Below, in pieces: positions 3,901-7,433 of a stretch of 7,433 bases of DNA. A program made the translations under genes and the position numbers. Source of the stretch: Naegleria gruberi (Eukaryota); assembly GCA_000004985.1 (NCBI GenBank), contig GG739139.1. One strand, written 5' to 3'. Numbering within the stretch: position 1 is the first letter of the stretch; each line of letters opens with the position of its first letter. Under the pieces are notes generated by a model. The model searched no databases. It was not told where the DNA came from and saw nothing but the letters and a program-made list of their open reading frames with translations.

Positions 3901-6197
3901 NNNNNNNNNNNNNNNNNNNNNNNNNNNNNNNNNNNNNNNNNNNNNNNNNNNNNNNNNNNNNNNNNNNNNNNNNNNNNNNNNNNNNNNNNNNNNNNNNNNN
4001 NNNNNNNNNNNNNNNNNNNNNNNNNNNNNNNNNNNNNNNNNNNNNNNNNNNNNNNNNNNNNNNNNNNNNNNNNNNNNNNNNNNNNNNNNNNNNNNNNNNN
4101 NNNNNNNNNNNNNNNNNNNNNNNNNNNNNNNNNNNNNNNNNNNNNNNNNNNNNNNNNNNNNNNNNNNNNNNNNNNNNNNNNNNNNNNNNNNNNNNNNNNN
4201 NNNNNNNNNNNNNNNNNNNNNNNNNNNNNNNNNNNNNNNNNNNNNNNNNNNNNNNNNNNNNNNNNNNNNNNNNNNNNNNNNNNNNNNNNNNNNNNNNNNN
4301 NNNNNNNNNNNNNNNNNNNNNNNNNNNNNNNNNNNNNNNNNNNNNNNNNNNNNNNNNNNNNNNNNNNNNNNNNNNNNNNNNNNNNNNNNNNNNNNNNNNN
4401 NNNNNNNNNNNNNNNNNNNNNNNNNNNNNNNNNNNNNNNNNNNNNNNNNNNNNNNNNNNNNNNNNNNNNNNNNNNNNNNNNNNNNNNNNNNNNNNNNNNN
4501 NNNNNNNNNNNNNNNNNNNNNNNNNNNNNNNNNNNNNNNNNNNNNNNNNNNNNNNNNNNNNNNNNNNNNNNNNNNNNNNNNNNNNNNNNNNNNNNNNNNN
4601 NNNNNNNNNNNNNNNNNNNNNNNNNNNNNNNNNNNNNNNNNNNNNNNNNNNNNNNNNNNNNNNNNNNNNNNNNNNNNNNNNNNNNNNNNNNNNNNNNNNN
4701 NNNNNNNNNNNNNNNNNNNNNNNNNNNNNNNNNNNNNNNNNNNNNNNNNNNNNNNNNNNNNNNNNNNNNNNNNNNNNNNNNNNNNNNNNNNNNNNNNNNN
4801 NNNNNNNNNNNNNNNNNNNNNNNNNNNNNNNNNNNNNNNNNNNNNNNNNNNNNNNNNNNNNNNNNNNNNNNNNNNNNNNNNNNNNNNNNNNNNNNNNNNN
4901 NNNNNNNNNNNNNNNNNNNNNNNNNNNNNNNNNNNNNNNNNNNNNNNNNNNNNNNNNNNNNNNNNNNNNNNNNNNNNNNNNNNNNNNNNNNNNNNNNNNN
5001 NNNNNNNNNNNNNNNNNNNNNNNNNNNNNNNNNNNNNNNNNNNNNNNNNNNNNNNNNNNNNNNNNNNNNNNNNNNNNNNNNNNNNNNNNNNNNNNNNNNN
5101 NNNNNNNNNNNNNNNNNNNNNNNNNNNNNNNNNNNNNNNNNNNNNNNNNNNNNNNNNNNNNNNNNNNNNNNNNNNNNNNNNNNNNNNNNNNNNNNNNNNN
5201 NNNNNNNNNNNNNNNNNNNNNNNNNNNNNNNNNNNNNNNNNNNNNNNNNNNNNNNNNNNNNNNNNNNNNNNNNNNNNNNNNNNNNNNNNNNNNNNNNNNN
5301 NNNNNNNNNNNNNNNNNNNNNNNNNNNNNNNNNNNNNNNNNNNNNNNNNNNNNNNNNNNNNNNNNNNNNNNNNNNNNNNNNNNNNNNNNNNNNNNNNNNN
5401 NNNNNNNNNNNNNNNNNNNNNNNNNNNNNNNNNNNNNNNNNNNNNNNNNNNNNNNNNNNNNNNNNNNNNNNNNNNNNNNNNNNNNNNNNNNNNNNNNNNN
5501 NNNNNNNNNNNNNNNNNNNNNNNNNNNNNNNNNNNNNNNNNNNNNNNNNNNNNNNNNNNNNNNNNNNNNNNNNNNNNNNNNNNNNNNNNNNNNNNNNNNN
5601 NNNNNNNNNNNNNNNNNNNNNNNNNNNNNNNNNNNNNNNNNNNNNNNNNNNNNNNNNNNNNNNNNNNNNNNNNNNNNNNNNNNNNNNNNNNNNNNNNNNN
5701 NNNNNNNNNNNNNNNNNNNNNNNNNNNNNNNNNNNNNNNNNNNNNNNNNNNNNNNNNNNNNNNNNNNNNNNNNNNNNNNNNNNNNNNNNNNNNNNNNNNN
5801 NNNNNNNNNNNNNNNNNNNNNNNNNNNNNNNNNNNNNNNNNNNNNNNNNNNNNNNNNNNNNNNNNNNNNNNNNNNNNNNNNNNNNNNNNNNNNNNNNNNN
5901 NNNNNNNNNNNNNNNNNNNNNNNNNNNNNNNNNNNNNNNNNNNNNNNNNNNNNNNNNNNNNNNNNNNNNNNNNNNNNNNNNNNNNNNNNNNNNNNNNNNN
6001 NNNNNNNNNNNNNNNNNNNNNNNNNNNNNNNNNNNNNNNNNNNNNNNNNNNNNNNNNNNNNNNNNNNNNNNNNNNNNNNNNNNNNNNNNNNNNNNNNNNN
6101 NNNNNNNNNNNNNNNNNNNNNNNNNNNNNNNNNNNNNNNNNNNNNNNNNNNNNNNNNNNNNNNNNNNNNNNNNNNNNNNNNNNNNNNNNNNNNNNNN
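974..6197. other. Unreadable block of 5,224 consecutive N: an assembly gap of estimated size, or a hard-masked segment.
   Basis: Counted directly: N begins after 'aatttcgagtctt' at 973 and ends before 'atctaatcaatc' at 6198. The length is not a round number, which fits a scaffolder's estimated gap or the exact extent of a mask rather than a placeholder. The flanking 5 nt (gtctt / atcta) do not form a target-site duplication. Confidence 0.98.
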
Positions 6198-6414
6198 ATC
6201 TAATCAATCTATCAAACATTGGAGCATCACATTCATTCTGTCTATCTAATTTCAAATGCATTGTCGAATAGCTTTCCAAATATCCACAGCCCCTGAGCAA
6301 TAGCAAAATCTTACAGTAGATTGTCTCTAAAATCAATGTATCAAATCCTTTTGCATGTAACTGTTCATCATTATATTCATAGTAGCCAAACCAAATTTTA
6401 AATCCTTCACAATT
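6198..6414 (-). CDS. Partial CDS or exon, open from 6414 into the N block; probably a downstream exon of the same gene as the LRR ORF.
   Basis: On the minus strand, 72 sense codons follow a TAA at 6415-6417 (NCEGFKIWFGYYEYNDEQLHAKGFDTLILETIYCKILLLLRGCGYLESYSTMHLKLDRQNECDAPMFDRLIR..) and remain open where the N run begins. The chance of this is about 0.92^72, roughly 0.003. The frame is offset +2 from the LRR ORF. A one-base indel cannot join the two frames, because stops in both frames lie between them (6429-6431, 6421-6423, 6415-6417). Splicing is the simplest link. The supplied track reports only 6336.. because it begins at an internal TTG. Confidence 0.35.
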
Positions 6415-6535
6415 TTAAAATTAGGAGATCAAATTTGACAAAGGCGAAACTTCTGATACAGAGATTTAATATATATTAAATAATAAATTTTTTGGAAAGA
6501 GCCACAATGCTCTTTGTGTGAAACTTCATACGTAC
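6405..6535 (-). other. Candidate spliceosomal intron on the minus strand: donor GTACGT at 6535, with an alternative acceptor giving an intron of about 209 nt that ends at 6327.
   Basis: Minus-sense 'ttt g|GTACGTat' at 6536/6535 is a consensus fungal-type 5' splice site in phase 1 relative to the LRR frame. The sequence between it and the LRR stop is AT-rich and low-complexity. A CTAAT branch-like motif sits about 16 nt upstream of an AAG at 6407-6405, and splicing there restores the downstream frame (..GINF-G-FKIWFGYY..). A better-looking acceptor, TTGATTTTAG|, at 6328-6327 also restores the frame in phase 1 (..GINF-E-TIYCKILLLL..). I cannot choose between them without transcript data. Confidence 0.25.
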
Positions 6536-6977
6536 CAAAATTTATACCATCATTATATTGAGATGATGTTGAAAATAGTACAAAAGTGTTACCACTTGCT
6601 TTAATTATTTGTAAATTTGGAAATAATGGTTGCAACCACCATGTATGATTATTATCAAAATCATTACGAATTATTAAAGTTTTCAATTTTGGTAAATTTG
6701 ATATTTGAAAGAAATTTAATCCTTTCAAATTATCTGAATAAATTGAGAGTGTAGTTAGTAAATTAAAAGTAAAAGATATTTCACTATAAAATTCCAATGT
6801 AATATAAAGATATTCTAAATTTGGTAATTTACAAAGTAATTTCAAATCAATGGCACTAATAGGATTACGAAATGTTAAATCTTTCAATGTTGATATTTTA
6901 GAAATGTGATGAAATATATTCTTATTATATTTTACTGAAATTTTAAGAATTAATATTTCTAAATTTAATTTACTCAA
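6429..6977 (-). CDS. Partial CDS, probably internal or 3' exon(s), encoding a leucine-rich-repeat protein of the RNI-like / F-box-LRR-like class. No ATG is present; the true start is unresolved.
   Basis: A frame of 182 codons is open in about 70% AT DNA; the chance of this is roughly 0.92^182, far below 0.001. The translation has periodic L/I/N spacing typical of LRRs (LKDLTF, LCKLPNLEYLYITLEF, LTTLSIYSDNLKGLNFF, ISNLPKLKTLIIRN, LFPNLQIIKASGN). The first codon at 6975-6977 is TTG, not ATG, and the peptide has no internal Met. An in-frame TAA lies at 6993-6995 (minus sense). The N-terminal ~20 codons (tta aat tta gaa ata tta att ctt aaa att tca gta aaa tat aat aag) and the C-terminal ~30 codons (..aaa att tat tat tta ata tat att aaa..) are AT-rich and low-complexity, so they are probably intronic read-through. 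The core coding part is likely about 6540-6905. Confidence 0.55.
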   Translation of the reverse strand: MSKLNLEILILKISVKYNKNIFHHISKISTLKDLTFRNPISAIDLKLLCKLPNLEYLYITLEFYSEISFTFNLLTTLSIYSDNLKGLNFFQISNLPKLKTLIIRNDFDNNHTWWLQPLFPNLQIIKASGNTFVLFSTSSQYNDGINFGTYEVSHKEHCGSFQKIYYLIYIKSLYQKFRLCQI

Positions 6978-7207
6978 TTCTGATAATATGATTTAATATG
7001 TCTTCCTTTTACATTGAATCGTTCGTGTATTTTCCAAACATAGCAATCCAACTCAATTGAGATATTTAATCATTGTATTAAACCACTTTCAAATTTAATA
7101 AAAGACTACTGATGCCATCATAACGGATGAATCCCAGCTTGATCTGTAACTAAGCAATATCAATGAGGTGATTGTCAAGGCACTCTCGGTACTAACATCC
7201 AACCACG

Positions 7208-7239
7208 GGTTGATTCAAAAGAAGTAATTTGAATCAACC
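7208..7239. other. Perfect 12-bp inverted repeat forming a hairpin, with an 8-nt loop.
   Basis: ggttgattcaaa (7208-7219), loop agaagtaa (7220-7227), then tttgaatcaacc (7228-7239), which is the exact reverse complement. After a G.A mismatch, two more pairs (7205-7206 with 7241-7242) extend the stem. It lies about 230 nt upstream, in gene sense, of the LRR open frame, within a locally GC-richer non-coding segment (about 7105-7300) where neither strand has an ORF longer than about 25 codons. Confidence 0.6.
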
Positions 7240-7433
7240 AGTTCGAAGCTTATTGAAATAATTCAATTAAGGGAGAAGGAAATCTGTACCTCTCCAGAGA
7301 AATGATTGAAAAAAACAAGAAGATAAAATAGAATTCTTTAATGTGTTTTGTTTTTTTTGTACATTACTTATCCAACAAACTCAATCTGAGAACCATTTGA
7401 AGTTCCTCATCATTTCTTCAAAAGTGACAGAAC

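Follow-up and report, generated by a model that had tools for sequence, protein, structure and literature searches.

An LRR coding block that may be an internal exon ending at a G/GTACGT motif beside a 5.2-kb run of N

Leucine-rich-repeat (LRR) proteins are recognized by tandem units of 20–30 residues with an LxxLxLxxN/C core, and include solenoids of the Pfam LRR_4 and LRR_8 type, bacterial internalin-like repeats and eukaryotic RNI- or SDS22-like repeats. The block of LRR-like units described here resembles these proteins in its LxxLxLxxN-like cores. It differs from them in lacking a specific homologue, a cap at either terminus and a partner domain, and all its Pfam scores lie below the gathering cut-offs. 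At the 3' end of this block stands a motif with the appearance of a 5' splice site, for which the closest described system is the U2-type GT-AG intron of the short kind found in fungi and protists, with a GTRNGT donor at the exon end, a CTRAY branch motif 10–40 nt upstream of the acceptor and a YAG acceptor (consensus as in PMC2483917). Introns of AT-rich species are ~76–89% AT (PMC2483917 Table 2). In many AT-rich genomes CTAATT is the commonest hexamer of the branch type (PMC2483917), and CTAAT is therefore a cheap motif that carries little information. The candidate intron is like the U2-type model in its donor, GTACGT with a G at position −1 (here written G/GTACGT, the slash marking the presumed exon border), in a CTAAT lying 16 nt from an AG, and in a typical length of 131 or 209 nt. 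Unlike the model, the acceptor paired with CTAAT is AAG and not YAG, with no pyrimidine tract, and the candidate intron has a lower AT content than the exon and contains no stop in the exon frame for 35 codons.

The window, by which we mean the whole stretch of 7,433 nucleotides that was analysed, consists of 973 readable bases, a run of N and a further 1236 readable bases; the GC content of the readable DNA is 27–31%. Two contigs of ~1 kb are linked by the N run, whose length is not a round number. This odd length and the ~1-kb pieces suggest a size-estimated gap in a small draft-assembly scaffold, which may coincide with the entire window. The readable sequence contains a single long frame, the LRR ORF on the minus strand. 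On the same strand the left flank (1–973) is dense in stops, with 21–31 per frame, and any minus-strand gene must therefore end within the gap. Rfam and tRNA scans of the window were empty, and blastn against phages and plasmids gave no match. Scans for identical DNA in viral, genome and metagenome contigs were negative, as were look-ups of identical proteins for four possible gene calls. The two flanks have no repeats in common, and the other main open frames of the window, concatenated, matched no homologue. Promoter-like sites were not enriched and no terminators were found in the readable sequence, which holds one real ORF in 2.2 kb. These features make a bacterial or phage source unlikely and, together with the missing start codon of the LRR ORF, suggest that the DNA is eukaryotic and nuclear. 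The features discussed below are collected in the table.

Table. Positions of the LRR block, the candidate splice signals and the neighbouring features in the window
Feature	Start	End	Strand	Remarks
N run	974	6197	no strand	5224 N; scaffold gap or masked stretch; any continuation hidden inside
ORF2	6198	6414	minus	72 codons, runs into the N block; first ATG at codon 52
Candidate acceptor 2, TTGATTTTAG/	6327	6336	minus	exon start 6326; intron 209 nt; in phase; YAG-type; 9/15 upstream pyrimidines
Candidate acceptor 1, AAG/	6405	6407	minus	exon start 6404; intron 131 nt; in phase; non-YAG; 7/15 upstream pyrimidines
Branch-like CTAAT	6420	6424	minus	A at 6421; 16 nt before G6405 of AAG; fits CTRAY
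TGA closing the LRR frame	6429	6431	minus	from the frame translation
Donor-to-TGA stretch	6432	6535	minus	5' part of an intron, open by chance for 35 codons, or a true C-terminal tail
Candidate 5' splice site G/GTACGT	6530	6536	minus	phase 1; read in the sequence
LRR-like coding block	6537	6992	minus	152 codons; ~6 LxxLxLxxN-type units; no ATG; probably an internal exon

Some features of the left flank deserve mention in their own right. The plus-strand frame starting at base 3 is unusually open between 18 and 959, with 3 TAA, 2 TGA and 7 TAG in 323 codons, and its part from 426 to 959 is a 178-codon run free of TAA and TGA (P ~0.004 in Markov simulations). The codon-position periodicity of the 18–959 frame is significant (p=0.002–0.004) and no homologue of it was found; decay of a former coding sequence or tolerance of TAG may account for the frame. 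The same flank carries a degenerate direct repeat of ~50–60 nt at 146–195, 366–425 and 752–845, of the form CTCAACATGATCT...TTTTATTnGT...ATTATCATCATGA, with a 25-nt core present in four copies.

On the minus strand of the right flank, the LRR frame is open from 6992 to 6432 (187 codons). Its translation contains ~6 tandem units of 20–27 residues with LxxLxLxxN-like cores, for example LPNLEYLYI and LPKLKTLII, the arrangement expected of LRR proteins. The LRR block has a GC content of 21% and GC contents of 0.25, 0.26 and 0.11 at the first, second and third codon positions (base-by-position chi2 p=0.0024). With this signature, and with 187 codons without a stop at 21% GC, it is clearly coding. 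Among the Pfam profiles the best score was that of LRR_4 (E 1.5e-4, 22.3 bits, below the 27-bit cut-off), followed by weaker, sub-threshold scores of LRR_14 and LRR_8. No curated LRR profile matched the block significantly, the Pfam scores being below their cut-offs and NCBIfam giving nothing. The LRR structures of PcpA and U2A' in PDB were retrieved at non-significant E values of 0.08–0.17, and the best library match was to a generic bacterial LRR protein (E 3.7e-6, query residues 45–108). A low-confidence AlphaFold model displays beta-strand periodicity.

The 187-codon frame contains no ATG, and no compatible, usable ATG exon lies within the 440 nt upstream of it. That the LRR ORF is not the whole gene thus has some independent support. 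Two in-phase acceptor candidates are found at its 5' end, TTATCAG/ at 6980 and AAATTTCAG/ at 6935; with either of them the LRR block would be a phase 1-1 exon. Variant genetic codes were also considered. Reading TAA and TAG as Gln, as in ciliates, lengthens the frames with no start codon gained. With TGA read as Trp the LRR frame grows to 221 codons; the Trp codons, however, are TGG throughout (3/3), which counts against this code. Further upstream on the minus strand, a near-perfect hairpin (7205–7242; 15-nt arms 93% complementary, 8-nt loop; no Rfam match) lies within the GC-richest patch of the window (0.40–0.45).

The LRR block is also a compositional island, with GC 0.21 and GC3 0.09 in DNA whose GC content is 0.28–0.32 on both sides. 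Being AT-richer than its flanks, it reverses the usual pattern of exons that are GC-richer than their surroundings, which hints at a different mutational history.

At 6536–6530 the minus strand reads GGTACGT. In the LRR frame the Gly codon GGT begins with G6536, which puts a donor at this place in phase 1, as had been claimed in an earlier note on this DNA. Over the last 270 nt of the LRR ORF no hexamer other than GTACGT agrees with a donor at 6/6 positions, and GTA[ACT]GT occurs nowhere else in the readable window. While it agrees with the extended donor consensus, the frequency of such motifs is no higher than chance: per window, GGTRNGT was expected 0.77 times and seen once, and GTRNGT was expected 4.07 times and seen twice. 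The motif alone therefore means little.

More telling is the composition on its two sides. We computed GC3 excluding Met and Trp codons, in a planned comparison across the boundary at 6536, which came from the earlier note. Its value is 9.3% in 6992–6537 and 25.7% in the 35 codons between donor and TGA (Fisher p=0.019), with a value of 31% in the background DNA. An unsupervised search for a GC3 change point placed the break at 6533–6536, with a log-likelihood ratio of only 2.65. The donor-to-TGA stretch has no codon periodicity (p=0.35). As the coding signature ends at the sole good donor, the exon probably ends there. The missing ATG and the GC3 jump together modestly support reading the LRR ORF as an internal exon with its end at G/GTACGT, and we rate use of this donor as a splice site as slightly the likelier alternative.

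The best explanation overall, to which we give a probability of about 0.5, is thus that of an LRR internal exon or fragment probably ending at G/GTACGT. The LRR ORF would be a genuine coding piece of an AT-rich and most likely eukaryotic, intron-containing genome. It would represent an internal exon or an exon-sized fragment, with a coding signature extending from ~6992 to ~6536, and the 35 codons down to the TGA would be intronic sequence open by chance. ORF2, the frame that runs into the N block, would then be the only candidate for the next exon in the readable sequence; otherwise the next exon would lie inside the 5.2-kb gap.

The same stretch can be read with no intron at all: the LRR frame would continue to a terminal-exon stop at the TGA (6431–6429), and ORF2 would be 3' flanking sequence open by chance or belong to something else. 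This reading accommodates the 35 codons open past the donor, a run for which we derived a probability of only ~0.06 from the background simulation if the sequence is non-coding, and it agrees with a donor motif at chance frequency. ORF2, moreover, looks non-coding, and ~0.66 runs of at least 72 codons are expected by chance. It is opposed by the GC3 of the tail, which is at background level and differs from the value for the LRR block (p=0.019), and by the position of the change point at the donor. It also needs a coincidence of ~1% for ORF2 (three frames, 0.0035 each). We consider it unlikely. Two neighbouring observations concern the same segment. After the TGA, the LRR frame is open for 31 more codons, to 6336, and from 6414 to 6336 two overlapping minus-strand frames are open; the region 6336–6431 is locally stop-poor.

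Introns are usually AT-richer than the exons that adjoin them. The candidate intron reverses this pattern, as it is 72% AT next to an exon of 79% AT, which counts against use of the donor, as do the 35 codons open behind it. Of the AT-rich introns of about 130 or 210 nt that had been proposed, the lengths hold, at 131 and 209 nt, and the AT content falls below that of the exon.

The other elements of the proposed intron are also present in the sequence. These are the CTAAT 16 nt before the AAG at 6407–6405 and a second acceptor ending at 6327, both acceptors being in phase, as well as a 72-codon frame at 6414–6198 that is open to the N boundary and whose translation agrees exactly with the peptide quoted earlier. 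The CTAAT lies within the 10–40 nt upstream of an acceptor where a CTRAY motif is expected. No pyrimidine tract was found upstream of the AAG acceptor. With the TAG acceptor the first 29 open codons of ORF2 are left unexplained, and the branch candidates ahead of it are TTGAT motifs only. Further in-phase AGs would give exon starts at 6347 and 6245. ORF2 contains 11 AGs, 4 of them in phase, and such agreement is trivial. If the candidate intron were removed, the open frames on its two sides would be brought together in phase, the downstream one having neither a coding signature nor a homologue.

ORF2 opens at 6414, directly after a TAA (6417–6415) and 10 nt before acceptor 1, and the first N is at 6197. 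No ATG occurs before codon 52; if coding, ORF2 must therefore be entered by splicing. A frameshift or single indel joining it to the LRR frame was considered and rejected. The LRR frame is open to 6432 and ORF2 from 6414, and because the two do not overlap one indel cannot join them; only splicing could. A background Markov model gives the openness of ORF2 a probability of ~0.0035 per frame, and segment shuffling one of 0.003–0.007. Over all readable sequence and six frames, ~0.66 runs of at least 72 codons were expected and three were seen, and another part of the window, for which no homologue was found, carries a longer open run of 81 codons.

The composition of ORF2 is flat, with GC contents of 0.35, 0.31 and 0.31 at the three codon positions. 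Its GC3 of 27.5% is close to that of the donor-to-TGA tail (p=1) and of the background, and differs from the 9.3% of the LRR block (p=0.0009). The difference between GC3 and GC1/2 is −0.02 in ORF2 and 0.007 +/- 0.071 in simulated chance open frames, compared with −0.11 to −0.18 in LRR windows. To judge whether ORF2 is coding, we did not retain the base-by-position chi-square: its values for chance open frames from the simulation are as high as those for real LRR windows, and it thus has no power here. No family match of ORF2 was found in Pfam, NCBIfam or PDB, and the best PHROG match was non-significant (E 0.052). We also discarded the idea that ORF2 is a further LRR unit, as its BLASTP comparison with the LRR block yielded an E value of 1.4 and no Pfam LRR was detected. 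ORF2 is accordingly a doubtful next exon after the LRR block: its composition speaks against this role, and its openness is what speaks for it.

The model put forward in the earlier note goes the whole way. It splices G/GTACGT (6536/6535) to AAG/ at 6405 or TAG/ at 6327 and reads through ORF2 into the gap, so that the LRR segment becomes an internal domain of a larger protein whose C-terminal part would mostly be hidden in the N block. This model is nested inside the case of the preferred explanation in which the donor is real. Every signal it calls for is present and in phase, both intron lengths are plausible, the CTAAT is well placed ahead of the AAG, the GC3 break coincides with the donor, and ORF2 opens just ahead of acceptor 1 with no early ATG and with the low per-frame probability given above. 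Against it stand the composition of ORF2, which is that of non-coding background and not that of the LRR exon, the choice between a non-YAG acceptor and one that wastes 29 open codons, the lack of any LRR or other family signal or homologue in ORF2, and the 81-codon run, which is open without having a homologue. We regard the full model as possible but tentative, at clearly less than even odds. Of the claim that the gene goes on past the TGA, the better supported part is the incompleteness of the LRR ORF, with its missing ATG and its rise in GC3 at the donor; the continuation through ORF2 fares worse, given its GC3, the AAG acceptor and the missing homologue.

Similarity searches bear on both halves of the putative product. 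A word-indexed protein search with the spliced product gave no match. An exhaustive HMMER search of 1.84 billion protein representatives returned two generic LRR matches only; the alignable match covered query residues 45–108, and nothing was found on the ORF2 part among these representatives. No related loci for the LRR block or ORF2 were detected in viral, genome and metagenome contigs. The proposed check, that homologues would show the ORF2 peptide to be contiguous with LRR proteins, thus came back empty, and the LRR block is likewise without a specific relative. Since neither has a specific relative in these searches, homology cannot decide the matter. The spliced and the unspliced product were each modelled from the single sequence with AlphaFold; both models had a pLDDT of ~41 and did not discriminate between the two.

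The isolation of the LRR block also admits a reading in which nothing is spliced. The block could be a dead or captured fragment, either a piece of a pseudogene or a foreign, AT-richer insertion, with ends near 6992 and 6536, the donor motif and ORF2 being coincidental. It has neither an ATG nor a specific homologue, it forms an island of low GC and GC3, and a decayed-looking frame lies in the left flank too, all of which fit such an origin. On the other hand, 187 stop-free codons at 21% GC argue for recent or current selection, and three coincidences (donor, open tail and ORF2) would be needed. We think this origin improbable. Far less probable still is a variant in which the LRR block is a foreign module (GC3 9% versus 26–31% around it) from a much AT-richer genome, for example that of a virus or endosymbiont, that was exonised via GGTACGT; if it were true, the junction of the LRR block with ORF2 would be a recent domain-capture event.

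To return to the preferred reading, that of an LRR internal exon or fragment probably ending at G/GTACGT, this case is an ordinary gene-structure question about an orphan LRR gene, and it opens no general question. It teaches that AT-rich DNA readily supplies a perfect-looking donor, a branch motif and AGs in phase; here it was the composition by codon position and the missing start codon that were informative. A real intron would do no more than correct a single gene model of a fragmentary assembly, making the LRR segment an internal domain of a larger, unseen protein.
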